Source: Candidatus Moraniibacteriota bacterium (GTDB lineage Bacteria > Patescibacteriota > Minisyncoccia > Moranbacterales > GCA-2747515). Taken from it: DNA of 60,830 nucleotides. Made by a program: the position numbers and the translations under genes. Under the pieces are notes generated by a model, which had not been told where the DNA came from, did no database searches, and worked only from the letters and a program-made list of their open reading frames with translations. Below are positions 4,511-24,601 of this stretch, piece after piece. Numbering within the stretch: the first letter of the stretch is position 1; each line of letters opens with the position of its first letter. The DNA lies in NCBI GenBank assembly GCA_002747515.1, contig PDPP01000019.1:1-60830 (forward strand), in the 5' to 3' direction.

Positions 4511-4550
4511 GCTCTATCAAGATATTATTCTTGATAGAGCTTTTATTTTT
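4511..4550 (+). terminator. Rho-independent terminator
   Basis: gctctatcaaga (4511-4522) pairs perfectly with tcttgatagagc (4529-4540), followed by ttttatttttt. It overlaps the 3' end of the convergent gene 4543..6537. Confidence 0.8.
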
Positions 4551-6537
4551 TGACCTTTACTACTTTGATGAAGTTTTTGGGACGCTTTCCAATAGGAAAA
4601 TTAAAAACAGTTTGTTTCTGTAAAAAATTTTCATCGTAATACAGTTGTTTTGTGATATTATGTGGATTATTTCCTATTGGATGAAATGATTTTGTAATCA
4701 TACCACGTCGTGAAAATACAAAATAATCAATTGGAGTATGTTCGAGATATAATTCATTGGAAACAATACATTTGCCAATAAAGAACTGACAGATAGCACG
4801 ATGATCAGTCCAAATAACTTTTTCAGTGGCATTTTGTTGTGCATTGAGATATTGCGCTGCTTCATAGGCGCCATATCCCCACGAATCAGTGACAACATAT
4901 TTTTTAGGAAGAAGAATGCTTGTGTAGTTAAAATAAAATGGTTTAATGGTCCATAATGCAAAAAATTGTATTGTAATTAGACATAAAAGAGTGATGAAAT
5001 AAAATGTGTTTTGTGATATTTTATTTGAAATAATTGTTTTTTGAGATAATTCATATAATGCAATTCCTCCGAGAAGTGTATATGGTACATAGAGCATAAT
5101 ACTATAACGTACATTTACAAAAATATCTGCCAGAAGGCCACCAACGATAAAAACAAATGGCATTAATGATAAAAGATAAATGATTGGGATGAATTTTTTA
5201 TTATGAATAGTGTTTTTTATAAGAATGAACCAAAGAAAAAATACCAGAAAAACGATCAGAGGAGAAAGTGAAAAAATAAAATTTTGTGCCTGCACAGTAA
5301 GTGCTTTGAGATAAAAAAGAGGTGCAGGATTGGAAGCAAAATCAGGAAATTGTAATGTACCACTGACACGGGAGTTTTCTTTGATGTCATCTAGAGAAAA
5401 AAATGGCGTATTTGTCCATGCATTAATTAAAGAAAAAACAAAAATAAACATCAAAAATAGAATTCCAGTATTAAGAATTTTTTTGATATAATTTATTTTT
5501 TTTGCTAAGAATTTTGCACATAGCAAAGGAACTAAGATTGTAATGCAAATAAAAATAAGAAAAGAAATTATACCAATGGGAATTGTTTTATATTTTGTTG
5601 GTGAAATATAAAAGACGTTTTTGAGGTGTGTTGCGTGTAAAAATGTATCAACAATAGGGGAAAGTGTTGGGGAATATATTGTGCCATAAAGAAAATGGTG
5701 TGGCGCATGAAATATCGATGGCATAAAAATAATGAACAAACTACATGAAATAATAAAGATAATCAAAAAAGATTTGATATATGGTACACCATCTTTTCTC
5801 CAAGAGAAATGTTTTTTTTCAAAAATAATGTAGAGAACAAATAAGGCTGGATAAAAAAGAAAAAGAAGATTAGCGGTGTATTTTGATAAAAGTGCAAATC
5901 CCGTAAAAAGACTTGCGATAATGAGAAATTTCTTTTCTTTTCTGTAAAGATGTGTAGCAAATGCCAAAAGCGCTATCGAAGACGTACCCCACAAAAGTGC
6001 ATCAGGATTGATGATTTGGCTAATACCAATGATAATCGGATTGAGACCAATTAAAATGATTGTTGTATTTGTGATAAAAAAGTTTTTTGTTAGAGAATAG
6101 AGCAGGTAATATATGAGCGGTAAAATAATGAGTGCATTGAAAAGCAAAATTGGATAGCGGAGGGAAAAGTTTATTTTTTCGGTCAATTCTGTGTGATACA
6201 TGTCATAAAGAGATTTAGTTTTTTTGGTTTTTTCATCGTAAAATGTATATTTTTTCTCTCCTACATCGTCAATGTGGCTTTCTGGATTTGGTCCGTAAAG
6301 TTTTCCTATTCCTGCAATAAGTGCGACAGTTATACCTGGTTTATCATTAATGTGTGTTTTTTTCCAATTATTATGTGTAAACCCTTCTTGGAGACCATTG
6401 TAATATTTATTGATACGGTCATATTTCCAGAAGTGTTCATCTGTTGTTTCAAATTGTGCAATATGAAATGTTCCGTATCCGATGAAAAATAATACAGCGA
6501 TAAAAAGAGGAATGTGTTGTATGACATGTTTTTTCAT
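4543..6537 (-). CDS. polytopic membrane glycosyltransferase, GT-C fold (ArnT/PMT-like, GT39/GT83 type)
   Basis: 664 aa with many hydrophobic helices. The first loop carries the acidic motif TTDEHFWKYDR followed by NDKPGITV. It has a soluble C-terminal domain. Clear paralogue of 6543..8753. Confidence 0.8.
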   Translation of the reverse strand: MKKHVIQHIPLFIAVLFFIGYGTFHIAQFETTDEHFWKYDRINKYYNGLQEGFTHNNWKKTHINDKPGITVALIAGIGKLYGPNPESHIDDVGEKKYTFYDEKTKKTKSLYDMYHTELTEKINFSLRYPILLFNALIILPLIYYLLYSLTKNFFITNTTIILIGLNPIIIGISQIINPDALLWGTSSIALLAFATHLYRKEKKFLIIASLFTGFALLSKYTANLLFLFYPALFVLYIIFEKKHFSWRKDGVPYIKSFLIIFIISCSLFIIFMPSIFHAPHHFLYGTIYSPTLSPIVDTFLHATHLKNVFYISPTKYKTIPIGIISFLIFICITILVPLLCAKFLAKKINYIKKILNTGILFLMFIFVFSLINAWTNTPFFSLDDIKENSRVSGTLQFPDFASNPAPLFYLKALTVQAQNFIFSLSPLIVFLVFFLWFILIKNTIHNKKFIPIIYLLSLMPFVFIVGGLLADIFVNVRYSIMLYVPYTLLGGIALYELSQKTIISNKISQNTFYFITLLCLITIQFFALWTIKPFYFNYTSILLPKKYVVTDSWGYGAYEAAQYLNAQQNATEKVIWTDHRAICQFFIGKCIVSNELYLEHTPIDYFVFSRRGMITKSFHPIGNNPHNITKQLYYDENFLQKQTVFNFPIGKRPKNFIKVVKVKK

Positions 6538-6542
6538 AATGT

Positions 6543-8753
6543 TTATTCAATGATATTTATTGCTTTTGCATCAATGATTTTGATATAGTGAGCGTGTCGT
6601 TTGCTAGGGTATATTTCATATACAGAAGGAATGTTTTCACTGTACAATCTATCAAGGTGTACATTGTGCGATGATTTCGTTGTGAGGTTTTTCGTGACAT
6701 GTGTGATGTAGTTTTTGCGGTTCTGAGAAATGATATAATAATCAATGTTTGGTGCAATATACCTTAACTCCTTGTCTTTGATCATATTGTTACAGGTGCC
6801 AACAAAAAATTGGCACACACCACGTTTATCTGTCCAAATTAAGAGATCTTTTGCATTTGATAAATTATTGAGATATTGTGCAATTTCATAATTTCCATCA
6901 CCCATATCTTTTGTATTGATTACATATTGTTTTGGAAGTAGTGGGCTGTTGTAGGAAAAATAAAAATGCGACATATGTGCTAATTGCCAAGAACTGAGAC
7001 ATATAATTACGATACTTGTGATGTAAAATATATATTGTTTTTTTGAAAAAATACGTGTGAGCATATTGATGCCAATGCTTGCTATGAGAATAAAAAAAGG
7101 ATAAAGAATAATTTGATAACGGACAATCGGTACGACATTATTTATAGTAGAAGCAAAATAATATACTAATATAAAAAGTGTGCAATATGTTATTATAATT
7201 GTTTTTTGAGATAATTTTTTGTGTGCAAATATTGTATAATATGAAAAAAAAGCAAAAATAAACACAAGTGGCGTAACACCAAAAAGAAGTGGAAAAAATG
7301 ATGTAAAATATATTGCGAGGTCACTGACTTCTTTATAAATAGATTTTGGTGATTCAATAATACGCGAAAAATCAAAAAATGGCATTTGTGTATAAACATT
7401 ACATATAGTGATAAGTGCTGAAATAGTGAATATGCTGATGATAGTATATACAAGAATGTTTTTGTATTTTTGGCATGTTGTGATTATTTTTGTGAGTACA
7501 AAGTTTTTGAAAAGAAATGTATCAATGAGAATTAGTATAATGACACAAAAAAAGTATATCCATGTGGAAGAAAATGCTTCTGAGTAAATGGTGGCAATGA
7601 GTAGGCGGTCATGTTTTACCCATACACCGGGATAGAGTACATAAAACACTGACAGTGCAGTAAATGTCATAATTGTATAGTGGATGAGTTTATCTTTGAT
7701 GTGTGTATTGAGATTATGTGGTAGTTTTTTGTGGATGATACTATCCACAAAAAGAAGAAGAAAGAAAAATACAAAAAAAATATTTGCGATATATTTAGTG
7801 AGCAGGGCAAGTCCCAGTAAGATGCCGGTGAGATATATCCACTGTAGCGTATGTTCGCGGAGATATAGGAGAAAGCTTATAAAACATAAAAAGAGAATAA
7901 TCCACAACAATGCATCCGGATTGATGATACGTGATATACCCAATAAAAGTGGTGAAAGGAGAAGTAATATCGTTGTATATACGGCGACATGTGTATCAAG
8001 TAGTCTGCGTACAAGTGGGAAAACGCATAAAGAGAGAAGAGTGATGATGAGGAATTGTGGTGTGCGTAGTGCGGTGAATAGGGATGCAATCTGTTCTTTT
8101 TGTATAGTGCCTTTAGCAAACGCAGTTGGATCAAAAAACAAGAGTCCTGGACCAGTAACAATTGCTGTAGTAACACCTGGTTTATCACTCGGACGCGTGT
8201 TTTTCCAGTCACGTTCCAACACATTATCCCAATATTGTTCAATGCGGTCATATATCCATAGTCGTTCATCTACATATGATGCTTTGCCAATATCACTGAG
8301 ACCGAAAAATAAGTGTATTGCGGTGGCAATACTGATGGTGATAAATATTGCTTTGTGTGTGTGATGACATTTTTTTTCTTTTGTAGGATGTTGTAGTTGA
8401 TATTTTTTGTGGTATTTATAAATGTATATAGCACCAAATGCAATACAATAAAATCCAATCATTGCAGAAAAAATCCAATGAAGTTGTGTTGTGGTAAAAT
8501 TAACAGTGATGAAAAATAAAATAAAAGAGAGAATGCTAGAAAAAAAGAATTGGAAAATGTTTTTGTTTTTGTAAAAAAAGAAAAATGATCCCGCAAGAAT
8601 AGTAAAAAAACTTACATATAAAATTTTGAGTGATGGAAGAATATGTAATGTGTCAAATTGATCAATTTTATGTACGATGATAATTATGGAAATAAAAGAA
8701 AGAACTATAGATAACAGTTTTGTAATCTGCAGATGTGAGATTTTTATTTGCAT
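6543..8753 (-). CDS. polytopic membrane glycosyltransferase, GT-C fold (ArnT/PMT-like), tandem paralogue
   Basis: 736 aa. It shares VDERLWIYDR..SDKPGVTT and the C-terminal CQFFVGTC (versus CQFFIGKC) with 4543..6537. It has an extra N-terminal cluster of about 4 helices. The two genes are only 5 nt apart. Confidence 0.8.
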   Translation of the reverse strand: MQIKISHLQITKLLSIVLSFISIIIIVHKIDQFDTLHILPSLKILYVSFFTILAGSFFFFYKNKNIFQFFFSSILSFILFFITVNFTTTQLHWIFSAMIGFYCIAFGAIYIYKYHKKYQLQHPTKEKKCHHTHKAIFITISIATAIHLFFGLSDIGKASYVDERLWIYDRIEQYWDNVLERDWKNTRPSDKPGVTTAIVTGPGLLFFDPTAFAKGTIQKEQIASLFTALRTPQFLIITLLSLCVFPLVRRLLDTHVAVYTTILLLLSPLLLGISRIINPDALLWIILFLCFISFLLYLREHTLQWIYLTGILLGLALLTKYIANIFFVFFFLLLFVDSIIHKKLPHNLNTHIKDKLIHYTIMTFTALSVFYVLYPGVWVKHDRLLIATIYSEAFSSTWIYFFCVIILILIDTFLFKNFVLTKIITTCQKYKNILVYTIISIFTISALITICNVYTQMPFFDFSRIIESPKSIYKEVSDLAIYFTSFFPLLFGVTPLVFIFAFFSYYTIFAHKKLSQKTIIITYCTLFILVYYFASTINNVVPIVRYQIILYPFFILIASIGINMLTRIFSKKQYIFYITSIVIICLSSWQLAHMSHFYFSYNSPLLPKQYVINTKDMGDGNYEIAQYLNNLSNAKDLLIWTDKRGVCQFFVGTCNNMIKDKELRYIAPNIDYYIISQNRKNYITHVTKNLTTKSSHNVHLDRLYSENIPSVYEIYPSKRHAHYIKIIDAKAINIIE

Positions 8754-8798
8754 ACTTATCCAAAAAAAATATTATAATACATTTAGTATAGAGGAAGT

Positions 8799-10550
8799 AT
8801 GGGCAAAATCAAGAAAATTATAAAAAAATTATTACAATATAAAATAATATATTTATGTTTAGTTATTTTTTTTGCCATAGGGGTGTTTTTGCGCGTGTAT
8901 CATTTTTCATCGTGGTTGCACTTTGAGTTGGATCAAGCGCGGGATGTTTTTGTGATTTATGATGCGGTGCATGGTGGGATTGATGATATGCCACTACATG
9001 GTCCGCAGGCGCGTGGGCGTGAATTGTATCTTGGTCCGATTTTTTATTATTTTCAGTATGGCAGCGCACTGCTTTTTGGTGTATCACCGGAATCAGCTGC
9101 ACTGCCTGATCTCTTGTTTTCCATTTTGGCGATGCCGCTGTTTTATGCGTTTGCCTGCTTGTTTTTTGCGCGGCCTATTTCTGTTCTGTTGACGGGTCTC
9201 GTGTCGGTCTCGCTGTTTTTGGTGGTGTATGGGCGTTTTGCGTGGAATCCCAACGCGTTGTTTTTTTGGTCACTTGTGACATTTTATGCTTTGTTGCGGG
9301 CATGGGATGGTGTGCAGTTGGACAAAAGATGGTTTGTGGGCGCAGTGGGTGCGTTGGCGGTGGTGACGCAGTTGCATTTCATCGCGTTTATCGTAGTGCC
9401 GTTGACGTTCGGTGTGTATATGATTGTTGTACGCATGAAAGTGCCGTTTCGCGCTGTGCTTGCGAGCTGTGCGGTGTGTCTAGTGTTGTATCTGCCTCTG
9501 ATTGTGCATGACATAAAGCACAGTGGACAAAACATGACCGCATTTATAGCATCGGTGACGATGAGTGAAAATGACAGTGCACAGGCACAAACGGCAAGTG
9601 ACAAAAAACACCACATGACAGAACGCTTTTTTCGCGCCGCACAAGAGACAAGTACATTTTTTGCCACAATCGTGAGTGCGGATCATCATGGACGGTATCA
9701 TATCCGGACAAAAAACGACGACGGACACATCACATTTGTGTGTGACAAAAAATGCAAAAATGCACTGCCATATCACATCGGTGCAATCGGTGCGTGTGTC
9801 TTTGTCATCGGTGTGTTTTATATCACGTGTGTGCGCATGTGGCGCCGCGGTGTCACAGCAAACGCTGATGACGTGCAAAAACGCAACCGATATACGCTTG
9901 TGTGTCTCTGGACGGGTTTTGCAGGTGTGTTTTTTGTGTTGGTCGCATATCAGATTTCACCACGGTTTTATTTGTTTGTCGCTGTGCCGTTTTTTATCAT
10001 GTGTGGTGCACTTATAGAATCTCTGTGGAAATGGAAACGCTATGGTCCGTGGGTGAGTGGTGGTATCGTCGGGTGTCTCATCATCGCCAATCTCGTGGTG
10101 TGTGCACAGTACTTTGGCGTGTTGCAACGTGCACAATATGAAGTCGTTTCGTGGCGCGACACTGCGATGAATCGGCACGACATCGTGACATTGGGGCAAC
10201 TGCGCCGCGCCGCGCCGTATATCAGCGGAGACGACATGCACAATCCATTCGTTATTGTCGGAGACAATCGCTATGCACGCGCGCTGTATTATCTCGTTCA
10301 TGTGGAAAAAGAAAATGCGCGTGCACAGTGCTACATGAAACGTGGCGGTTTTGACGTGAAAAATGTAGAAGGTATCCCATACTATCTACTCGTGCGCACA
10401 AAATCCAAAACACACGTGACCGACGACATGCGCCTGCACCACACCATCGCCAATCACACACAATTTGGCACAATTACAATATACAAAATGATGCCACATG
10501 GACCATCACCTCTACTATCTGCACAACCGACGCACTGTTTTGTGCGCTGA
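8799..10550 (+). CDS. polytopic membrane glycosyltransferase, GT-C-like (GC-rich paralogue group B)
   Basis: 583 aa. After TM1 it has HFELDQARD..HGPQARGRELYLGPIFYYFQYGSALLFG, aligned by eye along the full length with 14338..16128. GAGGAAG RBS. Visibly GC-rich coding sequence. Confidence 0.75.
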   Translation: MGKIKKIIKKLLQYKIIYLCLVIFFAIGVFLRVYHFSSWLHFELDQARDVFVIYDAVHGGIDDMPLHGPQARGRELYLGPIFYYFQYGSALLFGVSPESAALPDLLFSILAMPLFYAFACLFFARPISVLLTGLVSVSLFLVVYGRFAWNPNALFFWSLVTFYALLRAWDGVQLDKRWFVGAVGALAVVTQLHFIAFIVVPLTFGVYMIVVRMKVPFRAVLASCAVCLVLYLPLIVHDIKHSGQNMTAFIASVTMSENDSAQAQTASDKKHHMTERFFRAAQETSTFFATIVSADHHGRYHIRTKNDDGHITFVCDKKCKNALPYHIGAIGACVFVIGVFYITCVRMWRRGVTANADDVQKRNRYTLVCLWTGFAGVFFVLVAYQISPRFYLFVAVPFFIMCGALIESLWKWKRYGPWVSGGIVGCLIIANLVVCAQYFGVLQRAQYEVVSWRDTAMNRHDIVTLGQLRRAAPYISGDDMHNPFVIVGDNRYARALYYLVHVEKENARAQCYMKRGGFDVKNVEGIPYYLLVRTKSKTHVTDDMRLHHTIANHTQFGTITIYKMMPHGPSPLLSAQPTHCFVR

Positions 10551-10597
10551 TTTGCGTTTTTCACAATTATTTTCTATATTAGAGTCACTGCACAATA

Positions 10598-10712
10598 ACC
10601 GGAAGGAAGTAATTATTCTCTCATCCATGCCACGATTATAGACTTCCGGTGTAGAGGCTGTGAAAGAATGGTTCGTTCTACACAATGGAGAACAAGGATG
10701 AGAGATTTCTCA
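10598..10712 (+). promoter_or_regulatory. structured RNA leader upstream of the zinc-finger gene (class unknown)
   Basis: Three helices. accggaag (10598-10605) pairs with cttccggt (10643-10650). gtgtaga (10649-10655) pairs with tctacac (10677-10683). A perfect 10-bp long-range pairing joins tctctcatcc (10617-10626) to ggatgagaga (10696-10705). The last is topologically a pseudoknot with, or an alternative to, the first. Confidence 0.3.
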
Positions 10713-10728
10713 CAAAAAGGAGGGTAGT

Positions 10729-11109
10729 GTGAAGAAAAAAACATATGAAACTCCACAGTCGTACTTTGACAAAATTAATGACATTTCACTGACCGCAATT
10801 TTTCATATTCTTGGTATAAAAGTTGAAAACACGCGAGGTGGAAAATCAGATTTTTCTATTCACGCATATTATGTGAAATGCCCATTTCATAGAGAAAAAA
10901 CAGCATCGCTAGCTTTTTCGAGAACAAGACGATGTTTTTCTTGTCGGGGTTGCGGACAAAGTGGTACGGTTTTTGATTTTGTTAAATACACTTTAAAGGA
11001 GCAAACTCGTGGCGATTATGATAACGTCGGAGTGTACAAATGGTTCAAAAAACATTTCGGCATCCCATTGCCGTGGGAAAAACGAAATGGGAAGTTTATT
11101 TATAAGTAG
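10729..11109 (+). CDS. stand-alone CHC2 (DnaG-primase-type) zinc-finger protein
   Basis: 126 aa. The motif CPFHREKTASLAFSRTRRCFSCRGCGQSGTVFDF matches the CPFH-x-EKT-PS..C-x-GC-G CHC2 zinc-finger signature. No TOPRIM or polymerase domain follows. GTG start 4 nt after AGGAGGG. Confidence 0.8.
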   Translation: MKKKTYETPQSYFDKINDISLTAIFHILGIKVENTRGGKSDFSIHAYYVKCPFHREKTASLAFSRTRRCFSCRGCGQSGTVFDFVKYTLKEQTRGDYDNVGVYKWFKKHFGIPLPWEKRNGKFIYK

Positions 11110-11129
11110 CATTTTCTTACACACAAAAT

Positions 11130-11156
11130 CTGTAGCATAATATGTTACAGGTTTTT
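11130..11156 (+). terminator. Rho-independent terminator
   Basis: ctgtagcat (11130-11138) pairs with atgttacag (11142-11150) with one mismatch, then gttttt. Confidence 0.55.
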
Positions 11157-11220
11157 AATTTTCAAAGTAGCTTGATGCGTTTTGGAGGTTGAGTTTAAGT
11201 TGGAAAAATTGACAAAAAAA

Positions 11221-11249
11221 TTGACAAAGTAATGGTGAGATGTTACTAT
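11221..11249 (+). promoter_or_regulatory. sigma70-type promoter
   Basis: TTGACA (11221-11226), 17-nt spacer, TACTAT (11244-11249). A second aaattgacaaa copy lies 11 nt upstream. Confidence 0.5.
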
Positions 11250-11358
11250 TTATTGTCGTTTTTTAACAATGTGACAATGAAACAATGGAGCGGTGATGTG
11301 TGTGATGTTTTGTATGAAATTATAGTAAATGATTAGTGCAGAGGAGGAGGTAAATGTT

Positions 11359-11703
11359 ATGGTAGAAAAGATATTTAGAGGTGTTTTTGCCGGTATTTTT
11401 TGTGGGGTGATGGGCACAATTTTGGCAGTTGAAAAAATCCGGCAATTGTGTCGCACAAAAATTGATGATTATCGTATTTTTGATCAATACATCGAATTTT
11501 ATGCAAAAGGGAAGTGTGTTTTTACACTGAAGAAATATGACAAATATTCTATTTTCTTTGAGAAAAATATTATACGATTTTCATATTTTGGATGTGGGAA
11601 AGATTGGTATGAATTTCGTTTTTCGGAAAAATTGCAAAAATCTATCACATCTTCTTTACATCCATCATGTTCTCCATACGAAAGAGGGTCTTATGTTTTT
11701 TAG
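11359..11703 (+). CDS. hypothetical membrane-anchored protein (114 aa)
   Basis: ORF 11329..11703 trimmed to ATG 11359, which sits 8 nt after GAGGAGGAGG. N-terminal hydrophobic helix FRGVFAGIFCGVMGTILAV. A terminator follows. No motif recognised. Confidence 0.5.
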   Translation: MVEKIFRGVFAGIFCGVMGTILAVEKIRQLCRTKIDDYRIFDQYIEFYAKGKCVFTLKKYDKYSIFFEKNIIRFSYFGCGKDWYEFRFSEKLQKSITSSLHPSCSPYERGSYVF

Positions 11704-11725
11704 TAAGATGCACAACGACTCTCAC

Positions 11726-11761
11726 ACACTTCAATACTCTAGAGTATTGAAGTGTTTTTTT
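11726..11761 (+). terminator. Rho-independent terminator
   Basis: Perfect 15-nt arms acacttcaatactct / agagtattgaagtgt (11726-11755), followed by a T-run to 11761. Confidence 0.85.
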
Positions 11762-11821
11762 ATGATTGCTAAAATGGGGGAAAATCTTTACAATGAATGT
11801 GTGATTGGTAATACAAATAGT

Positions 11822-13423
11822 ATGCGTAGAATTGTAAAAGATATTGTGGCACATAAGAGATTTTATGGAGTGTTGTGTCTAGTTTTTGTGTGTGCGGCAG
11901 TGGTGCGGTTGTGGGGATTGGGCGCTGTGCCGTTTGTGGCAGATGAGTTTTTGGATGTGAATGCGACGTATGGGTATCACAAGACGGGGCAATGGCAGGC
12001 GTGGGACTTTAATCATGATGCCGTGAGTGTGCGGGACAATGCAGCGTCTGACAAGCGTGCGTGGTTGTACCGTGCGCAGGTTGCGTTTTTATATCAGTAT
12101 TTGCCACCGACTGAGACGACAGTGCGATTGGTGAGTGCGCTGTGGGGGATTGTGATGACACTGCTGTTATATGCTGTGACGCTCAGTTTGACCAAAAACC
12201 GGTGGATTGCGCTTATTGCAGCGTTTTTGTGGGCGGTGAGCGTGCCGGCGATTGAAATCAATCGCAAAGTGCGGATGTATAGCATGTTTGCACCGGTGTT
12301 TCTTTTGTTTTGGTGGAGCGTATTTCAATTTATTGAGGCGCGTAGAGACGCGATTGATCGCGTCTGTAGGAAGGCAAGAGAAAATAATACATGGAAAGAC
12401 GCGATAAATTGCGTCTCTACAATTGTGTGCTGGTGGTATCTGGTGCCAGTGGTGTGTTTTGGTGCGGTGTCGTATCATCTGCATCCATTGACGGGTAATA
12501 TTGTGCTGGTGGTTTTTGTGTACTGTGTGGTGATGGCGTGGGTCGCTCGAGAAGCGCGCATGAAAAAGCGGTATGGGATATATAGCGTTCTGATGCTCTG
12601 TGGTGCGGTGTGTGCATGGTGGTTTGTACCACATGTGTGGGTGCAATTTACGAGTGCACTGGTGTTTTTTGAAAATCATTGGAGTTATGTCGGGCATATT
12701 TTGCGCGGGTATTGGCATCCGCTCATCGGTGTGGCGCTGATTTTGCTTGGTGCGTGGCACATGACAAAGGCGAAACACAACAGGCATGCGGGCATGTGGG
12801 TAGTGAGTTCGTTTTTCACAATTCTCTGTGCGGCGATATTTTTGTGGCGGCGCAATGTCGGACCGCAGTATATTTTTTTCATACAATCATTTGGGTGTAT
12901 GTTGGCGGGCGCGGGTGTGTATGCGCTGGCGAATTTTGTGAAAAAACATGTGCCACATCGCAACGCATTTCTTTTTGCACTTCTCACTGGTGTGATTTTT
13001 GTGCCGTTTTATGGATACTTTTTTCTCGAAAACAATACCTATCACATCACATCACGTGGCGAGCAACCACATTACCGCAAAGTGTTTGATTATGTCAAAA
13101 GACACACCGAGCGCGGAGATGTAATGATCACGCGCAATTTTCGCAATTATTACTGGAGTGGGCTTGATATACCAGTCTATGACTTTGGCACGGAGCGCAG
13201 CGCACAAGAGATTCAAAAAGAAGGTAAAGTACAAAAAATCACAGTGGCACACATCGAAGGTATCGTCACCACACACCCACAGGGATGGATAGTGTTTACA
13301 GACAACGACACCGTCTTTATCACCAAAGAAGCCCGCGCATACTGTGACGCGCATTTCACAAGAATTACCGATTCCCCACTAGTGCGGGGGAAGGTGTTTG
13401 TGTATCGGTGGGATTTAGAATAG
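11822..13423 (+). CDS. polytopic membrane glycosyltransferase, GT-C fold (ArnT/PMT-like; GC-rich group C)
   Basis: ORF 11537..13423 trimmed because its 5' part overlaps the upstream gene and terminator. Candidate starts are 11762, 11774 and 11822. The first loop has AVPFVADEFLDVNATYGYHKTGQW (DE-type motif). About 11 helices and a soluble C-terminal domain. Confidence 0.72.
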   Translation: MRRIVKDIVAHKRFYGVLCLVFVCAAVVRLWGLGAVPFVADEFLDVNATYGYHKTGQWQAWDFNHDAVSVRDNAASDKRAWLYRAQVAFLYQYLPPTETTVRLVSALWGIVMTLLLYAVTLSLTKNRWIALIAAFLWAVSVPAIEINRKVRMYSMFAPVFLLFWWSVFQFIEARRDAIDRVCRKARENNTWKDAINCVSTIVCWWYLVPVVCFGAVSYHLHPLTGNIVLVVFVYCVVMAWVAREARMKKRYGIYSVLMLCGAVCAWWFVPHVWVQFTSALVFFENHWSYVGHILRGYWHPLIGVALILLGAWHMTKAKHNRHAGMWVVSSFFTILCAAIFLWRRNVGPQYIFFIQSFGCMLAGAGVYALANFVKKHVPHRNAFLFALLTGVIFVPFYGYFFLENNTYHITSRGEQPHYRKVFDYVKRHTERGDVMITRNFRNYYWSGLDIPVYDFGTERSAQEIQKEGKVQKITVAHIEGIVTTHPQGWIVFTDNDTVFITKEARAYCDAHFTRITDSPLVRGKVFVYRWDLE

Positions 13424-13457
13424 TAATTAGTAACTTGTAACTCGTAATTAGTAATTA
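13423..13457. repeat. five tandem heptamers GTAAYTN
   Basis: gtaatta gtaactt gtaactc gtaatta gtaatta, read directly. It lies between the stop of 11822..13423 and the start of the SGNH gene. Confidence 0.9.
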
Positions 13458-13467
13458 ATGTGTTTGT

Positions 13468-14076
13468 ATGAGTAAAAGAATATGTGTTTTTGGGGATAGT
13501 ATTACACGTGGTGCATTTGACTTGGAAAAGGGTGGATGGGTGAATCGCTTGAAGATGTATTTTTGGAAAAATGAGGGGGTGGGTAGTGTTTATGAAATTG
13601 GTGTAAGCGGTGATTATGCAACAGATATTATACGGCGATTTGAAATAGAACTAGATGTGATGAAAAAACAGTTTGATTGTATTATATTTGCTATTGGCTT
13701 GAATGATGTAAGTCTTGATGATGGTGGAAATAGGGAATTTACTTCAGATGAGTTTAGAAAAAATATGCATTGTATTGCGAAGCGCTCTAGTAAAAGATTT
13801 GGTGCAGGTAATGTCTTTTTTGTTGGAATAACAAATGTTGATTGTGCTATTGCAGGTCAGTGGTTTGATAATAATCGAATAAAGAAATTTGATGGAATTG
13901 TGCAGGAAGTCGCGGTACAAAATAACTGTAGATATATTTCAGTATTTGACTTATTGGATAAAGATGATTTGTGTGATGATGGATTTCATCCAAATGCAAA
14001 AGGACATGAAAAAATTTTTCAGCAAGTGAAAAAGTGTCTTGTGGAAAGTGAGGTTGTGCAGTTAGAGGCGGTGTAG
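13468..14076 (+). CDS. SGNH/GDSL-family hydrolase (esterase/acylhydrolase)
   Basis: Block I VFGDSITRG, block III GLNDV, and block V DGFHPNAKGHEKI (catalytic D-x-x-H). Confidence 0.85.
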   Translation: MSKRICVFGDSITRGAFDLEKGGWVNRLKMYFWKNEGVGSVYEIGVSGDYATDIIRRFEIELDVMKKQFDCIIFAIGLNDVSLDDGGNREFTSDEFRKNMHCIAKRSSKRFGAGNVFFVGITNVDCAIAGQWFDNNRIKKFDGIVQEVAVQNNCRYISVFDLLDKDDLCDDGFHPNAKGHEKIFQQVKKCLVESEVVQLEAV

Positions 14077-14088
14077 AGGTGTGTGGTT

Positions 14089-14258
14089 AGATCTCTCCAC
14101 TCCGCATGTGCTCCGGTCGAGATGACATAATATTTAGAATATTAGATTGCTAGATCTCTAGATGATTAGATTATTCTTGAAAAAGCCTTTTTTGGTTATG
14201 TGACACAAATGTAAAAAAATGTCATTCCGACCGGAGCGCATGCGGAGTGGAGGAATCT
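14089..14258. repeat. REPIN-like doublet: two inverted 40-nt GC-rich hairpin elements around a 90-nt AT-rich spacer
   Basis: 14089-14128 matches the reverse complement of 14219-14258 at 35/40 positions (hand alignment). Each arm keeps its own internal 5-bp stem (atctc/gagat versus attcc/ggaat). Confidence 0.85.
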
Positions 14259-14337
14259 CTCGCGTGATATGTTTCGCACGCTGTCGACAGAAATCCTCTG
14301 GAGTGGCATAATGATAGGCAGATTATTGAAAATATAG

Positions 14338-16128
14338 ATGAAATATATGTGTAACATACAATCAGTGATGAAAAATAATATTGTGTGGGTGGTGTTGGGG
14401 ATTGTTTTTGTTGGGGCGTTTTTGCGGTTGTATCATTTTGAGGATTGGATGCATTATCAATTGGATCAGGCGCGAGATTTTCGTGTGGTGCATGCGGCGA
14501 TGGAGTATGGTCCGGGGGAATTGCCGTTGCAGGGGCCGCGTGCAGCAGGGTCGTTTTTGCGACTGGGTCCACTGTTGTATTACTTGGAGTATGGGAGCGC
14601 ACTTGTGTTTGGTGATACGCCGGCAGGGAGTGTGATGATTATTGCGCTTTTGAATATTTTGTCTATTGGGATTTTTTATCTTTTTGTGCGACGGTTTTTT
14701 GATGCGTTTATATCATGTGGACTAACGGGACTCTGGGCAACGTCACTATTTTTGATTGTGTACAGTCGTTTTGGGTGGAATCCGACATTATTGCCGTTTT
14801 TTGTGCTTTTGTTTGCCTATGCGCTACTCCGCGTCAATGATCGCAATAACAAACACGCCGGATGGTGGCTTGTTACAGCGGCAATTGCTACCGCGTTTAT
14901 TGTGAATATGCATTTTGTGGCGTTTGTTACTGTGCCAATTATTGCTATTTCGTATCTTATATGGACACGGCCACGGATTGGTTTTCGATATTGGGTCATG
15001 GCGATTGTGGCATTTATTTTTCTCAATGTACCACTCATTGTCAATGATGTGAAAACTGGTGGAGAAAATTTTCAGGAATTTTTTGCCGTAGTCCACGATC
15101 GTGGTGGTAATGATGTGGAAAGTGCACACAGTATCACTGACAAAGTGATCAAAAATACTGCGATGCACGTACAGTATTTTTGGTTGATAATCACAGGAGA
15201 TCAACGTGCAGGATTGCCGACACTCACGGGAATAGATATAAAATGTGGATATGACTGTCGGCATGGTATGATACGTGGTGGTATTGCTTTACTGTTTTGT
15301 GTGGCAGGTATCGCAAGTTTCATCATATTATATCGTCGGAAAAATAATTGTGATCAACGTATGTTTTTACGTTTGGTTGGTCTATGGTCTGTAGTACTTT
15401 TTGTCGTGTATACGCCGTTGGCATATGATATTGCACCGCGGTTTTTCTTACTCAATGCGCCACTGTTTTTTGTGTTTGTGGGGTGTATTTTTGCAGTAAT
15501 TAGTACAAAATCGCAAAAATGGAGTCATATCAGTGTAGTGGTTATAATTGTTATAGCGATAGGTGCGCAGTCATTTTTTGTTGTGCAGTATTTTCACGGA
15601 TTGGCACATGCTGCAACGGATACTAAACTGGTATTATCACATCCTGATCGCATCCTCAAAGAAAAAACACGTGTGACATTTGTACAAATGGAGGACATTG
15701 TGGATTGGATGGAGCAGAAGCACCGAGAAAATCATGAACCGGTTTTTGTGCATGCACAGCCGGAGTATAAGCGGGCTTTTTGGGAGCGTGTAGATGTGCG
15801 CGATATCCCACGTGCGCATATCCCAAAAGACCTCACACCACTGTACCGGAAAGGAAATTATTTCATCATTATTCGTACGCAGTCAGATCAGTCAGATTTC
15901 TTGGAAAAGTTTCTTGTCGGACTGGACATCGTGGAGCGCAAAACATTTGGTACGCTTACGGGGTATTATCTGCGCGCACGTCCCAGCGCTGTGACAGCAG
16001 AAGAAAAAATATTTACACCAAAACACAGAGATCCACGCTTTAGCAAGGGCGTCCAACCACGCTATTTGTGGCGACAAGTTTTTGATGGGTGTACATATAA
16101 TCATCAGACAGACCTGTGTGAAAAATGA
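14338..16128 (+). CDS. polytopic membrane glycosyltransferase, GT-C-like (GC-rich paralogue group B)
   Basis: 596 aa. HYQLDQARD..QGPRAAGSFLRLGPLLYYLEYGSALVFG and the C-terminal YFIIIRTQSD..FGTLTGYYL parallel 8799..10550. Alternative start at ATG 14368. Confidence 0.75.
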   Translation: MKYMCNIQSVMKNNIVWVVLGIVFVGAFLRLYHFEDWMHYQLDQARDFRVVHAAMEYGPGELPLQGPRAAGSFLRLGPLLYYLEYGSALVFGDTPAGSVMIIALLNILSIGIFYLFVRRFFDAFISCGLTGLWATSLFLIVYSRFGWNPTLLPFFVLLFAYALLRVNDRNNKHAGWWLVTAAIATAFIVNMHFVAFVTVPIIAISYLIWTRPRIGFRYWVMAIVAFIFLNVPLIVNDVKTGGENFQEFFAVVHDRGGNDVESAHSITDKVIKNTAMHVQYFWLIITGDQRAGLPTLTGIDIKCGYDCRHGMIRGGIALLFCVAGIASFIILYRRKNNCDQRMFLRLVGLWSVVLFVVYTPLAYDIAPRFFLLNAPLFFVFVGCIFAVISTKSQKWSHISVVVIIVIAIGAQSFFVVQYFHGLAHAATDTKLVLSHPDRILKEKTRVTFVQMEDIVDWMEQKHRENHEPVFVHAQPEYKRAFWERVDVRDIPRAHIPKDLTPLYRKGNYFIIIRTQSDQSDFLEKFLVGLDIVERKTFGTLTGYYLRARPSAVTAEEKIFTPKHRDPRFSKGVQPRYLWRQVFDGCTYNHQTDLCEK

Positions 16129-16219
16129 TGATAGGTTTTGTGAGTGTTATTGTGTGCAGTAATGCTCTGATATATAATATGGATTGTAAAGTGCAAATAA
16201 CTATTAATAAAAATGTTTT

Positions 16220-16582
16220 ATGAAAAAGGAGATCATTAGCGTTTTTGCTATGATAGCATTTTTGTGTGGGTGTAGTGCAAATACTGCACAGAATGATGAT
16301 GATGCGTCGCAGACAATGTCGGATGCGAATACGGTGCTGTACTATTGTGGTGATCAAGAATTGAAAGCGGAGTTTGATGCTGAGGGAGAGACTGTAGAAT
16401 TGTTTTTCACGGGGAAAAAACATGAGCCGATTGTGCTGAATTCTGTTGTGAGTGCGTCAGGTGCAAAATATTCTGATGGCACAATTATCTTTTGGGAACA
16501 TCAGGGCGAGGCATATCTGCAGCTTGATGGCGAGGAAAGCAAAAGTGCAACATGTACGATAAAAAATGGAGAAGAAATGTAA
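16220..16582 (+). CDS. MliC-family lipoprotein (putative inhibitor of c-type lysozyme)
   Basis: 120 aa. Lipobox-like AFLCGC signal end. Y-x-C..ELKAEF..VVSASGAKYSDG..FWEHQGEAYL..ATC matches the MliC pattern as I recall it (SxSGxxY and a conserved Cys pair). Confidence 0.7.
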   Translation: MKKEIISVFAMIAFLCGCSANTAQNDDDASQTMSDANTVLYYCGDQELKAEFDAEGETVELFFTGKKHEPIVLNSVVSASGAKYSDGTIIFWEHQGEAYLQLDGEESKSATCTIKNGEEM

Positions 16583-16611
16583 TATTTTTTCTGTGTAAAA
16601 TAGTATGAAAG

Positions 16612-16637
16612 AAAGTCACAGTATCGTGGCTTTTTTT
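16612..16637 (+). terminator. Rho-independent terminator
   Basis: aaagtcac (16612-16619) pairs with gtggcttt (16626-16633), including one G-U pair, followed by T7. Confidence 0.55.
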
Positions 16638-16683
16638 GTTGCGTGTTTGTGATATACTTGTAGTAATGGTTACTTATTAATAT

Positions 16684-17439
16684 ATGACGATTATGGAATC
16701 ACATAAATTGACAAACATTCTTTTGGTGTTGGTATTTATCGCGCTAGCATATCTCACTTTTACGCATCGAGATATTAGTGTAGATATGAGTACTGGAGAA
16801 CGTGATCGCACAATTTCTGTTACTGGGGAGGCAGAGACATTTGTTGCGCCGGATACAGCGAGCGTGTCGTTTTCTGTGACAAAAAAAGCACAAACAACAG
16901 AAAATGCAATGAATTCAATTAATGAACGTATGAATGTATTACTTGCACAATTAAAAGGTTTTGATGTGAAAGAAAAAGATATTAAAACAGTAAATTATTC
17001 TGTACAACCACAGTATTCATATAATAACAACAAACAAATATTTGAAGGGTACCGTGCAACACAAAGAATACAGGTGAAAATACGTGATCTTGAGAAAACA
17101 TCAGATATTTTATCGACAGTTAATAGTGCTGGTGTTGATAATGTATCACAGTTAACATTTTTTGTAGATAATGAAGAAGAAGTGAAAGAAAAATTGCGCA
17201 AAGAGGCGATAAAAAATGCAAAAGAAAAAGCAAAAGTATTAGCGCAAGATCTTGGTGTGAATTTAAATGAGATTGTTGGATATAGTAATGGTAATTTTAA
17301 TGATGGATTTGAACCGGCGTATCGTTCACAAGATTTTGCATATAGTATGAATGCAAAAGAAGAAGTTGCAGAAGCAGTTGTGCCAACAGGAGAGAATCAA
17401 TTTAAGGTTATTGTTACTGTTATGTATAAAATTAATTAA
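16684..17439 (+). CDS. SIMPL-domain (DUF541/BP26-like) protein
   Basis: 251 aa with an N-terminal anchor helix. ISVTGEAETFVAPDTASVSFSV and the later GYRATQRIQVKIRDL and ..ENQFKVIVTVMYKI are typical of the SIMPL/BP26 family. Confidence 0.78.
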   Translation: MTIMESHKLTNILLVLVFIALAYLTFTHRDISVDMSTGERDRTISVTGEAETFVAPDTASVSFSVTKKAQTTENAMNSINERMNVLLAQLKGFDVKEKDIKTVNYSVQPQYSYNNNKQIFEGYRATQRIQVKIRDLEKTSDILSTVNSAGVDNVSQLTFFVDNEEEVKEKLRKEAIKNAKEKAKVLAQDLGVNLNEIVGYSNGNFNDGFEPAYRSQDFAYSMNAKEEVAEAVVPTGENQFKVIVTVMYKIN

Positions 17440-18105: not shown

Positions 18106-20472
18106 ATGCACTATATGACAAAAAAAATACTTTTAAGCCTTGTAGGTCTTAATGTTGTTTTTCTGATTATTTTTTGTAGTTTTATTTTCTTTCATAAAAA
18201 TAATTTTAGTGAAAAAAAGGTACACACACATAAAAATACTTCACATATGGGACCTTCTTTAAAAGAATATTCTTTTGCAGAATTTGTGGATGATAAGACG
18301 CAATTTCAGCCACAATTACCAGAATATACAATTGCATCTAATGAACTCTCTAATTTAAAAGATTTTGAAAATAGTATCAAGAAAAATTTTACACCAGAAC
18401 AAATTGCGACATTGGAAAAAGATCATTTTTTTATTACTAAAAATGATGATCAGTTTTATCAGAGTGATCCATCAAAAGAAGATGCGCGTTCTGATGATTG
18501 GACGAGTTTATATAAAAACATTGGAGGTGATGCATGGAAGCAGTTTCGTAAGCCGGAGAATGCGGTTTTTGTGACATCAGATTTTCTTTTACACACTTAT
18601 CATCGATTATTGGAAAAAGAATTTGAATATATCGAATTCATGGAATTTTACCCAAGAATACAAGAAATTTCTCAAAGCATGTTAATGGAGGCTGTGAAGG
18701 AATATGAATCAGCGAAAGATGAAAAACAAAAAGAAAGTTTTGAGAGACTAATTGCATATTTCGCAGTGCCTACATCAATTTTGAATGTTGTGGAAGATGA
18801 TTTTATACAAGCTTCAGGTAATGATAGTCAATTGGACGATATAAAAAAAGTAGAAGCAGAATTAAATGAGCTAAAGAGTCAAATCCCTGCCAATGCATTT
18901 AAATGGGCAAGTGAAGAAATACATGCAGTATATGAAGCAAAAGAAATGAAGTTTTCTCCAATTTTTGGACTATTTTTAGAATCTGAAGGTTTGCAGTCTT
19001 TGTCTGATTATACACAATATCAACCGCGTAGTCATTATAATAAAAATGCAGTTTTGCGTGCATATTTTCGTTCTATGATGTGGTATGGTCGAAATAATTT
19101 TGCTCTAAAAAGTGATGCGTTGACGAGAGATGCTGCAAATATCACAAAAAACATGCAAAAATTACATTTGACAAAAAAATGGGAAGAGATTTACAATCCA
19201 ACAACATTTTTTGTAGGTGCTAGTGATGATTTAGGTATGTATGAGTATGGCAATGCAATTACATCAATAGGACAAAATAAACGTATTGATCATAAATTTT
19301 TATCACAGATGAAGGAGATTTTAGCAAAAGAAGATGGTCCACAAATTATGTCTTCAGTTATTGTTGGTGATGCAGTTTTTAGTACATCGGAGGAAGAACT
19401 TTTAGAACAAACAAAAGGGTTTCGTTTTATGGGACAGAGATTTACACCAGATGCATTTATATTTTCTTCTCTCACACAAGGAGATACGACACCTGATCCA
19501 GAGACGGGAGAATTTTTGCCGAGTACACCTACAGCAATGATGTTTTTTCAGATTATGGGAGATCAAACAGCAAAACCAATTATGAATCAATGGATTGCTA
19601 CAGAAGCACCTAATTCAAAAAATGTTTTAGCAAATAAGATGTCGCACTTGCAATCTACATTTGAAGAAGTATCAGTTGAACAATGGACACAAAATATTTA
19701 TTGGAGTTGGATTTATACAATTAATTCTTTGCTGGATAATGGTACAAAAAATGTGGAAGGTTTTCCGATGTTTGTTAAAAACGATAATTGGAAAAAGAAG
19801 AATTTACAATGCGCAGCTAGTTCATGGACCGAATTAAAACACGACACTCTTTTATATGCAAAACAATCTTATGCAGAAATGGGTGGCGGTGGTCCAGAAG
19901 AAGGAGAAATACCTCCTGTGCCAAAGGGATATGTTGAACCAAATATTGTATTTTTTGATCGATTAATTGGATTAACTAAATTATCAACAGAGGGATTGAA
20001 AAATGCGGGCGTATTGGATCAAGGTATGGAGAGTAGAAATAAAGAATTTATAAAGTCATTGACTTTTTTTCGAAAAATTGCTGTTGCACAATTGCAAAAT
20101 GAACAGATTTCTGATAAGGATTTTGAACGATTGCGAAATGAAGCAGGAAGATTGTCAAATATACTGCGACCATTTTTTGTGAATGAAACGACGACTGAAA
20201 ACAATGCACGTTCTGCTCTTATTGCTGATGTACATACTGATGTACCGGGAGGTCAAATTCTTTATGAGGCAACTGGCATACCAAATTATATTTACGTTGC
20301 AGTAAAAGATACAAATGGTGTGAGATTGACAAAAGGGTTGGTATTTTCTTATCACGAATTTACACATCCAATTGGAAAAAGGTTGACAGATGAAGTGTGG
20401 CGTAATTGGGTATATCAAGAAAAAGAAAAAGTTCCACAAATGGATGAATGGAATAAATCACTTGTTAAATAA
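18106..20472 (+). CDS. large membrane-anchored exported protein, probably DUF3160 family
   Basis: 788 aa with N-terminal helix LLSLVGLNVVFLIIFCSFIFF. YTQYQPRSHYNKNAVLRAYFRSMMWYGR resembles DUF3160 as I remember it. The family name needs an HMM search; the ORF itself is solid. Confidence 0.55.
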   Translation: MHYMTKKILLSLVGLNVVFLIIFCSFIFFHKNNFSEKKVHTHKNTSHMGPSLKEYSFAEFVDDKTQFQPQLPEYTIASNELSNLKDFENSIKKNFTPEQIATLEKDHFFITKNDDQFYQSDPSKEDARSDDWTSLYKNIGGDAWKQFRKPENAVFVTSDFLLHTYHRLLEKEFEYIEFMEFYPRIQEISQSMLMEAVKEYESAKDEKQKESFERLIAYFAVPTSILNVVEDDFIQASGNDSQLDDIKKVEAELNELKSQIPANAFKWASEEIHAVYEAKEMKFSPIFGLFLESEGLQSLSDYTQYQPRSHYNKNAVLRAYFRSMMWYGRNNFALKSDALTRDAANITKNMQKLHLTKKWEEIYNPTTFFVGASDDLGMYEYGNAITSIGQNKRIDHKFLSQMKEILAKEDGPQIMSSVIVGDAVFSTSEEELLEQTKGFRFMGQRFTPDAFIFSSLTQGDTTPDPETGEFLPSTPTAMMFFQIMGDQTAKPIMNQWIATEAPNSKNVLANKMSHLQSTFEEVSVEQWTQNIYWSWIYTINSLLDNGTKNVEGFPMFVKNDNWKKKNLQCAASSWTELKHDTLLYAKQSYAEMGGGGPEEGEIPPVPKGYVEPNIVFFDRLIGLTKLSTEGLKNAGVLDQGMESRNKEFIKSLTFFRKIAVAQLQNEQISDKDFERLRNEAGRLSNILRPFFVNETTTENNARSALIADVHTDVPGGQILYEATGIPNYIYVAVKDTNGVRLTKGLVFSYHEFTHPIGKRLTDEVWRNWVYQEKEKVPQMDEWNKSLVK

Positions 20473-24537: not shown

Positions 24538-24572
24538 TTTTTTAGTATAGCATTTTGAGGAGAATTTTACCA

Positions 24573-24601
24573 TTGACAATATAGTTGTTTCATGATATAT
24601 T
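24573..24601 (+). promoter_or_regulatory. sigma70-type promoter for the M16 peptidase gene
   Basis: TTGACA (24573-24578), 17-nt spacer, TATATT (24596-24601). Confidence 0.55.

Follow-up and report, generated by a model that had tools for sequence, protein, structure and literature searches.

Three GC-rich glycosyltransferase genes in a Moraniibacteriota envelope-glycan locus: probable in-place replacement by alleles from GC-richer relatives

We analyzed a 60,830-nucleotide stretch of the genome of a Candidatus Moraniibacteriota bacterium (contig PDPP01000019.1, henceforth the window). It contains three GC-rich genes for glycosyltransferases of the GT-C type, GT1 (8799-10550), GT2 (11822-13423) and GT3 (14338-16128), set among AT-rich DNA. 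We conclude that the cores of these three genes in a surface-glycan locus probably gave way, in place, to alleles from relatives of higher GC within the same clade. The recipient would be an AT-rich lineage of ~33% GC and the donors genomes of ~43-50% GC or more, with the genes keeping their ancestral positions. An earlier note, made from the sequence without database searches, had proposed a foreign origin of the three genes. The case for this is strong for GT1, good for GT3 and compositional for GT2; the genes proved to be neither insertions nor acquisitions from another lineage. The process is a familiar one, recombination at surface-sugar genes, and no new molecular system is involved. Features are listed in Table 1; L-numbers denote the fetched loci of relatives and the Logan contigs.

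The compositional mosaic is real. The window has a GC content of 0.349, and its 42 other genes give a background for GC content at third codon positions (GC3) of 0.243 (standard deviation (sd) 0.023, range 0.185-0.307), from which GT1-3 deviate by z = 6.6 to 12.1. Tetranucleotide distance from the window background, defined by 119 windows of 1.6 kb (0.237, sd 0.033, maximum 0.34), is 0.64 for GT1, 0.59 for GT2 and 0.43 for GT3. GT1-3 are thus atypical on both measures in the way expected of horizontally acquired DNA. A two-state hidden Markov model (HMM) delimited five GC-rich tracts, one for each of the three genes and two in genes downstream (Table 1). The tracts of GT1-3 are nearest in tetranucleotide usage to a relative, L001, yet lie beyond the range of L001 itself. 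The switching of base composition between the three genes and their surroundings, on which the earlier note was built, is therefore borne out: the profiles of GC, GC3 and tetranucleotide usage are not flat, and three tracts stand out. Its placement of the switches at gene boundaries is not exact: the flip in GT1 lies inside the open reading frame (ORF) at ~8876 and the tract of GT3 takes in 111 nt of upstream spacer.

Other compositional claims of that note also held. The modules between the tracts are AT-rich, with GC3 values of 0.25-0.31. The depletion of stop codons, and the resulting excess of alternative-frame ORFs, was recovered as 11.6-13.6 stops per kb in the five non-coding frames of GT1-3 compared with ~20-21 elsewhere, a difference that follows trivially from GC content. 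The coding strand is G+T rich (0.57-0.59 in GT1-3 versus 0.47-0.50 elsewhere). The shift extends to the encoded proteins. The ratio of the residues G, A, R and P to F, Y, M, I, N and K (GARP/FYMINK) is 0.80-0.87 in GT1-3 and 0.30-0.38 in the native membrane proteins PMTa, PMTb and MFS. This change in whole proteins goes beyond synonymous change and points to long residence in a GC-richer genome.

We compared the locus with those of relatives. Homologues of GT1, GT2 and GT3 all come from Moraniibacteriota or Parcubacteria metagenomes. Six related Moraniibacteriota loci share, with minor gains and losses, the gene order PMTa(-) PMTb(-) GT1 GT2 GDSL GT3 SIMPL Ham1 ... MFS(-) flippase(-) Tmk(-), so that the layout, which the earlier note took to be undescribed, is a conserved one. 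These loci are L002 (a 1.18-Mb contig, local GC 0.41), L043 (1.55-Mb contig, 0.37), L044/45 (CP175956, 1.29 Mb, 0.32), L046 (469-kb contig, 0.41), L001 (10.9-kb contig, 0.43) and L051 (28.3-kb contig, 0.556). Orthologues of GT2 and GT3 occupy the same positions in L002, L043, L044/45 and L046. A GT1 orthologue is in place wherever the gene exists (L001, L002, L044/45 and L046); L043 and L051 lack it. In all six loci, which span a local GC of 0.32-0.56, the orthologues follow the local GC. Their GC3 is 0.21-0.24 in the AT-rich L044, and in the GC-rich L051 it reaches 0.69 for GT2 and 0.65 for GT3. This match in every relative indicates that the layout is ancestral and that the GC anomaly is peculiar to the window genome. 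The AT-rich orthologues of L044 also indicate that the GT-C fold and family have no intrinsic need for GC-rich coding. The earlier note had drawn the same conclusion from the AT-rich paralogues next door, PMTa and PMTb. These are a poor control, being anciently diverged GT-C subfamilies with no significant BLASTP match to GT1-3, and it is the L044 orthologues that carry the point.

The window genes around GT1-3 include those for UDP-glucose dehydrogenase, GT4, LPG_synthase_TM, an SGNH esterase, SIMPL, Ham1, MFS, a Wzx-type flippase and, further on, Wzy_C and LytR-CpsA-Psr, and HisRS, FtsA and FtsZ are encoded on the same chromosome. Given these neighbors, the region belongs to a conserved locus for cell-envelope glycans, with five GT-C enzymes, on a Moraniibacteriota chromosome (Candidate Phyla Radiation (CPR)/Patescibacteria).

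GT1 provides the most detailed evidence for replacement. Its first 25 codons have a GC content of 0.12. Nucleotide identity to L001 is 0.3-0.55 up to ~8876, with 0.48-0.55 over 8799-8875, and ~0.9 from 8880 to ~10490; a short variable tail follows, similarity returns at the last codons, and past the stop codon there is only noise. The gene thus has the intragenic breakpoint of a mosaic gene: identity jumps from ~0.5 to ~0.9 at 8876-8880 (codon ~27), exactly where the composition of the window flips, and the ORF is intact. Over 8880-10490, 1445 of 1611 positions are identical (89.7%), and 109 of the 166 differences fall at third codon positions. By the method of Nei and Gojobori (NG86), the synonymous divergence (dS) is 0.37 and the non-synonymous divergence (dN) 0.049 (dN/dS 0.13). 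For the same pair of genomes, dS is 1.29 for GT4, 2.19 for LPGs, 1.89 for PMTb and undefined for PMTa. Where the residues are identical, the codon is also identical in 80% of cases in GT1 versus 46-58% in the comparison genes. A dS this low beside saturated flanks implies that two lineages with saturated backbones recently exchanged the core of this gene. The comparison with L001 places the import between codon ~27 and the stop codon, and the predicted product is chimeric and intact with a native N-terminal end. On this sequence evidence, GT1 is very probably a foreign allele. Its homologues in GTDB species genomes reach at most 34% identity, and an exact look-up of the window GT1 found no record elsewhere. 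Protein clusters at 90% identity hold only the window's own proteins, so there is no second assembly of the whole organism among them.

For GT3 the evidence is phylogenetic. The backbone of the window is closest to L043, with identities of 76% for SIMPL, 80% for Ham1, 81% for MFS, 77% for the flippase and 64% for PMTb (38-40% between PMTb and its other counterparts). A tree of the concatenated backbone proteins groups the window with L043 at 100% bootstrap support, and at 98% after Dayhoff-6 recoding; the PMTb tree does so at 100%. In the GT3 tree this grouping receives 0%, and the window groups with L046 instead (99%, 76% recoded). L043 GT3 is closer to L044 (75%) and L002 (73%) than to the window (65%), and a larger neighbor-joining tree puts the window GT3 outside a clade of L043, L044 and L002. 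This conflict with the backbone, which persists under Dayhoff recoding, supports import of GT3, and we regard it as likely that GT3 is a foreign allele. Two of the three genes therefore have histories at odds with their surroundings, as expected of horizontal acquisition: GT1 with a dS of 0.37 against at least 1.3 for its flanks, and GT3 with 0% support for a grouping that has 98-100% in the backbone. The phylogenetic check proposed in the earlier note thus yielded a conflict for GT3.

The start of GT2 is probably at 11822, judging by the family alignment and composition, and the ORF listing begins the gene at 11537. Sliding identity revealed no mosaic structure inside GT2 or GT3 relative to L043. 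L051, a GC-rich clade member (GC 0.556) considered as a donor, is no closer to the window than other relatives are. We also rejected the idea that an L001-like donor passed on GT2 together with GT1, as the 280 nt past the L001 homologue of GT1 are entirely non-coding. Within the GT2 ORF lies a 24-nt inverted repeat (12342-12420, 92% complementary) that corresponds to the protein loop with the least conservation and the lowest model confidence (residues ~161-200). A small palindromic sequence may have inserted here and been tolerated in frame.

We verified the assembly against Logan contigs, which derive from a separate and conservative k-mer assembly of run SRR6011893. Contigs 100% identical to the window cover 6427-8951, 10404-11752, 13025-14116 and 14757-16887 and cross four of the six junctions between GC-rich and AT-rich DNA, at 8.8, 10.55, 13.42 and 16.13 kb. 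L048, the first of the four, covers PMTb and crosses the intragenic breakpoint of GT1, ending with 46 nt of window-specific GC-rich sequence that has 7 mismatches to L001. L049 links the 3' end of GT1 to AT-rich DNA and ends in a hairpin at 11752, L047 joins the 3' 400 nt of GT2 to the native GDSL gene, and L050 links GT3 (from 14757) to the MliC gene and the native SIMPL gene. Each GC-rich gene thus has native AT-rich DNA attached to one or both of its ends, and the ORFs of GT1-3 are all in frame and full length. These contigs and the intact ORFs make misassembly very unlikely, and the multi-junction misassembly that the earlier note offered as an alternative is largely excluded.

The ends of the Logan contigs are informative in themselves. 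Positions 8951 and 10404 are the last and first window-specific 31-mers beside runs of at least 31 nt that are identical to L001 (8922-8972 and 10401-10433). Because the contigs stop where the two sequences share such a run, we infer that an L001-like allele of GT1 is present in the same read set. Its co-occurrence in SRR6011893 favors transfer. The interior of the GT1 tract could be partly a consensus of the two alleles; the junctions are unaffected.

Several observations weigh against replacement as the explanation for all three genes. The Logan assembly did not reproduce the junctions at ~11.8 and ~14.3 kb, which directly follow strong hairpins at which its contigs stop. At sites where the GT1 alleles of the window and L001 differ, the window is the GC-richer (90 versus 59), so L001 itself is probably not the donor but related to it, or else a second recipient. 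The GT2 tree groups the window with L043 at 13% with amino acids and 49% when recoded. At this level of support, the argument for GT2 is one of composition (GC3, tetranucleotides and protein composition), and we lean only somewhat towards a foreign allele. Close donors of GT2 and GT3 were sought in a database of 5.8 billion proteins, where the best identity was 64-66%. Orthologues that are ~65% identical in nucleotides are too divergent for ordinary RecA recombination, and replacement leaves the joining unexplained. Finally, the selective rationale for retention derives from general knowledge of surface-glycan loci.

We weighed these points against other origins of the mosaic. A chimeric metagenome assembly could alternate between an organism with AT-rich DNA and syntenic relatives of higher GC, one or several, in the sample. 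An L001-like allele sharing 31-mers with the window is evidently in SRR6011893, and the two junctions at ~11.8 and ~14.3 kb adjoin hairpin or repeat elements, one of them a ubiquitous module resembling repetitive extragenic palindromes (REP), at which Logan contigs break. Independent contigs nevertheless run unbroken over the other four junctions, and L048 joins its 46 nt of window-specific GC-rich sequence to the AT-rich 5' end. Each GC-rich gene has a contig link to native DNA on one side or both, the ORFs are intact with their invariant residues, and the order of the blocks is that of the conserved synteny; we find a chimera scarcely credible. Alternatively, native genes could have become GC-rich in place through GC-biased gene conversion or codon or mRNA selection, or could have failed to follow the AT drift of the genome. 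The recoded GT2 tree (49% for the window with L043) is compatible with such vertical descent, two further genes (RtcB and Tmk) are rich in GC3 yet group with L043, and there is no known donor for GT2 or GT3. This account is nonetheless improbable: the GT1 core has a dS of 0.37 to a 43%-GC genome beside saturated neighbors and its identity breaks sharply inside the ORF, the conflict of GT3 with the backbone survives Dayhoff recoding, the L044 orthologues are AT-rich, and the amino-acid composition of the whole proteins is shifted.

A classical genomic island, in which novel genes were inserted by a phage, an integrative element or a transposon, would account for the primase-type zinc-ribbon fragment and the hairpin resembling REP or miniature inverted-repeat transposable elements (MITE) in the spacers, and for a Y1-transposase-like gene in the GDSL-GT3 spacer of L044. 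The orthologues at the same sites in relatives argue for replacement and not insertion, however, the GC-rich tracts are single-gene and non-contiguous, and IMG/VR contains no relatives of GT1, GT2 or GT3, which speaks against a phage vector. The window has no tRNA and no Rfam match, and no integrase or transposase families were found among the window proteins covered by Pfam scans of the region, which did not scan the window exhaustively. We therefore consider an island very improbable. A variant of replacement is that one syntenic donor molecule, reaching from GT1 to GT3 and possibly to MliC, was integrated discontinuously in a single event instead of in three or four imports. Mosaic, non-contiguous integration from one donor molecule occurs in pneumococcal transformation, all three tracts share the tetranucleotide signature nearest L001, and the donors have the same gene order. 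GT3 is less GC-rich, however (GC3 0.39 versus 0.49-0.52), GT1 has a 90% nucleotide match where the best matches of GT2 and GT3 stay at or below 66% identity in amino acids, and in L001 no GT2 follows the GT1 homologue within 280 nt. A single event is accordingly possible but not the likelier course. The lower GC3 of GT3 and the lack of L001-like matches for GT2 and GT3 favor more than one source.

In the replacement that we favor, co-occurring relatives would have supplied DNA that entered the cell and recombined where short stretches are conserved, and the resident orthologue would have been replaced. Competence and pilus genes are common in CPR bacteria. The 5' crossover in GT1 would lie just upstream of a stretch encoding a conserved motif (…FLRVYHF…DQARD), a position that would have kept the native promoter region and N-terminus. 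A search for direct or tandem repeats as recombination substrates yielded nothing beyond short similarities, encoded by motifs, that GT1 shares with its paralogue GT3. The imported alleles may have been retained because altered surface glycans are advantageous under phage or host-recognition pressure; diversifying selection on surface glycans is plausibly behind their retention. Hypervariable genes for cell-surface modification, put down to phage pressure, have been widely reported (for example, PMC9426551).

A bolder possibility is that co-occurring Moraniibacteriota of very different GC content repeatedly swap the cores of GT-C genes as cassettes, across divergences that should defeat ordinary homologous recombination. 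Crossovers would then fall where short conserved stretches encode motifs, a little way into the 5' end of the gene and at its stop codon, and native promoters and N-termini would be kept. We consider this unlikely. If true, surface-glycan variation in CPR bacteria would arise through a regime of gene-core shuffling, and the RtcB, Tmk and MliC genes would show the same import process genome-wide.

The closest counterparts of the GT1 replacement are mosaic genes that arose by interspecies recombination in naturally transformable pathogens, such as pneumococcal pbp2x, pbp2b and pbp1a and Neisseria penA. They share in-place foreign blocks of related species within a resident orthologue, intragenic breakpoints, an intact chimeric protein and a jump in divergence. 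In the window genome, by contrast, donor and recipient are 10-15 GC points apart, the backbone is saturated in synonymous changes, far beyond the divergence of mitis-group streptococci, and the targets are GT-C glycosyltransferases of an uncultivated CPR bacterium. The locus also resembles surface-polysaccharide loci that undergo recombination (O-antigen rfb, capsule cps, and the glycosyltransferase 'metagenomic islands' of aquatic bacteria). It clusters genes for glycosyltransferases, a flippase, a Wzy-like protein and sugar-nucleotide synthesis, has atypical composition, and varies in gene content among relatives (an extra PMT_2 gene in L001, no GT1 in L043, and differing spacer cargo). In the classical cases, cassettes of several genes, usually with a GC content below that of the genome, are exchanged between conserved flanks. 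Here the gene order is kept, single gene cores of higher GC were apparently swapped, and native genes were left between them.

The locus thus appears to document a recent exchange of a gene core between CPR genomes at least 10 GC points apart, at sub-genic resolution, with an unusually strong contrast in composition and with a donor-like allele in the same sample. Envelope glycosyltransferases of these probably host-attached uncultivated bacteria would turn over by recombination despite a conserved locus architecture, which fits phage or host-recognition pressure on surface glycans. There are also practical consequences. Compositional binning and 'foreign island' filters can mishandle such contigs, and insertion and in-place replacement are inseparable by composition alone, so that synteny in relatives is required to tell them apart.

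We assessed the identity of the encoded enzymes. Against Pfam PMT_2 (gathering cutoff 26.1 bits), PMTb scored 57.8 bits, PMTa 35.1, GT3 30.7, GT1 29.6 and GT2 21.9; GT1 and GT3 thus pass the threshold and GT2 fails it on sequence alone. BLASTP among the GT-C proteins of the window identified GT1 and GT3 as paralogues (31% identical) and PMTa and PMTb likewise (29%), with no significant similarity among GT2, the GT1/GT3 pair and the PMTa/PMTb pair. An AlphaFold2 model of GT2, built with 42 homologues (predicted local distance difference test score 90.5, predicted template modeling score 0.89), matches STT3, ArnT (5ezm), PglB and ALG9 with probability 1.0 and a template modeling score of ~0.5, in agreement with the GT-C architecture of several membrane helices and a soluble C-terminal domain. 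GT1 and GT3 are accordingly assigned to the GT-C enzymes by their family matches, and GT2 by its predicted fold. Directly after the first transmembrane helix, in the first extracytoplasmic loop, lies an acidic motif (LDQARD in GT1 and GT3, ADEFLD in GT2), and its residues are assumed by analogy to be catalytic. The window proteins keep all of the invariants D45, Q46, R48 and D49 of the GT1/GT3 family, and GT2 keeps 49 of 49 invariant family residues, including D41, E42 and D45. Given this retention, GT1-3 should remain functional and are predicted to work still as polyprenyl-phosphate-sugar-dependent glycosyltransferases outside the membrane. They resemble the ArnT/PMT enzymes (GT39/GT83-like, PMT_2) in the PMT_2 matches of GT1 and GT3, the predicted fold of GT2 and the acidic motif after the first helix. 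They differ from them in that PDB sequence searches (GT1, GT2 and PMTb singly, and family profiles) gave no significant match to a solved structure and no NCBIfam equivalog matched these GT-C enzymes. A literature search found nothing on GT39 in Patescibacteria or on SRR6011893.

Table 1. Coordinates and composition of GT1-3 and of other features in the window (tracts are those of the two-state HMM)
Feature	Position	Strand	GC	GC3	GC3 z	Description
PMTa	4543-6537	-		0.235		Native AT-rich GT-C (PMT_2), 664 aa; syntenic orthologues in L001, L002, L046
PMTb	6543-8753	-		0.278		Native AT-rich GT-C (PMT_2/PMT), 736 aa
GT1	8799-10550	+	0.469	0.490	10.7	GT-C/PMT_2, 583 aa
GT1, 5' end	8799-8875	+				AT-rich first ~26 codons, native composition, not alignable to L001
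GT1, putative imported core	8876-10556	+				Tract 8874-10556, GC 0.485
CHC2 zinc-ribbon gene, DnaG-type	10729-11109	+		0.31		AT-rich, stand-alone, 126 aa, Zn_ribbon_DnaG 47.8 bits
124-aa ORF	11329-11703	+		0.26		AT-rich orphan
GT2	11822-13423	+	0.479	0.521	12.1	GT-C fold, 533 aa; tract 11888-13412
SGNH/GDSL esterase	13468-14076	+		0.251		Native AT-rich, 202 aa, Lipase_GDSL_2 68 bits
REP/MITE-like hairpin	14089-14258	.				Two inverted 40-nt modules, 90-nt AT-rich loop, in GDSL-GT3 spacer
GT3	14338-16128	+	0.430	0.394	6.6	GT-C PMT_2, 596 aa, GT1 paralogue; tract 14227-16075 including upstream spacer
MliC-like lipoprotein gene	16220-16582	+		0.388	6.3	120 aa, MliC 49.3 bits; tract (GC-rich core) 16264-16540
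SIMPL/YggE-like	16684-17439	+		0.206		Native AT-rich, SIMPL 165.8 bits; downstream backbone marker
Tmk	23953-24579	-		0.41	7.1	Syntenic position
RtcB	26026-27546	-	0.43	0.44	8.6	Syntenic position; tract 26038-27466

The DNA between the three genes had been described in the earlier note as native or other-source AT-rich cassettes, and the first description fits the GDSL esterase gene. This gene has the same position in L002 and L044, and it is 73% identical to the L043 fragment over the 40% that the fragment covers; being syntenic and nearest to the closest backbone relative, it is native. The spacer between GT1 and GT2 (10557-11821) measures 1.27 kb in the window and 57-62 nt in L002 and L046, and no fetched locus has counterparts of its genes. 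Matches of the zinc-ribbon protein to PHROG primases are confined to the finger, with no catalytic primase domain, and the 124-aa ORF has no Pfam or PHROG match. A terminator scan detected strong terminator-like hairpins in this spacer at 11125-11155 and 11726-11755, the latter with a 13-bp stem after the 124-aa ORF. MliC, a lysozyme-inhibitor family, has no homologue in the fetched loci, and the site between GT3 and SIMPL lacks such a gene in the relatives examined. The gene may have arrived together with GT3. By comparison of the loci, the zinc-ribbon cassette and the MliC gene appear as additions without counterpart in the relatives examined.

The 170-nt hairpin in the GDSL-GT3 spacer is an inverted repeat, 88% complementary, with a folding energy of -98 kcal/mol (z = -7.8). 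Its modules follow the pattern GTCATYCCGASCG…GWSGAGGRATCT, which also occurs in L007 (1313-1457) and L030 (6252-6380). More than 120 genomes from many phyla carry the module, in many cases as two inverted copies; among them are Acidobacteriota, Planctomycetota, Omnitrophota, Oscillospiraceae and CPR. This distribution identifies the hairpin as a ubiquitous REP/MITE-like element, and it had no meaningful match in Rfam. As for a known structured RNA in the spacers, we obtained only a chance match to a plant miRNA model, at 32 bits versus a gathering score of 136.

Besides GT1-3, the MliC, RtcB and Tmk genes are GC3 outliers, which the earlier note had missed. RtcB of the window is 90% identical in amino acids to that of L043, and the dS of 1.45 argues against a recent exchange with L043. 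Imports like those proposed for GT1-3 may thus occur outside glycosyltransferase genes too.

The cargo of the locus differs among relatives. The Y1-transposase-like gene of L044 lies at 9353-9961 (L044/L045), extra PMT_2 paralogues are present in L001 (7104-8891) and L043 (1889-3505), and in L043 the GDSL gene is truncated and GT1 is missing. In the window, a DUF3160 gene (788 aa) and a Memo-like gene (309 aa) stand between Ham1 and MFS (18106-21402); both are native AT-rich in composition, and neither is found at the corresponding position in L043, L044 or L046. The whole window has a strong positive GC skew on the plus strand regardless of gene orientation. At third codon positions, C exceeds G in minus-strand genes and G greatly exceeds C in plus-strand genes, and the skew is consistent with a single replication arm with marked strand mutational bias.

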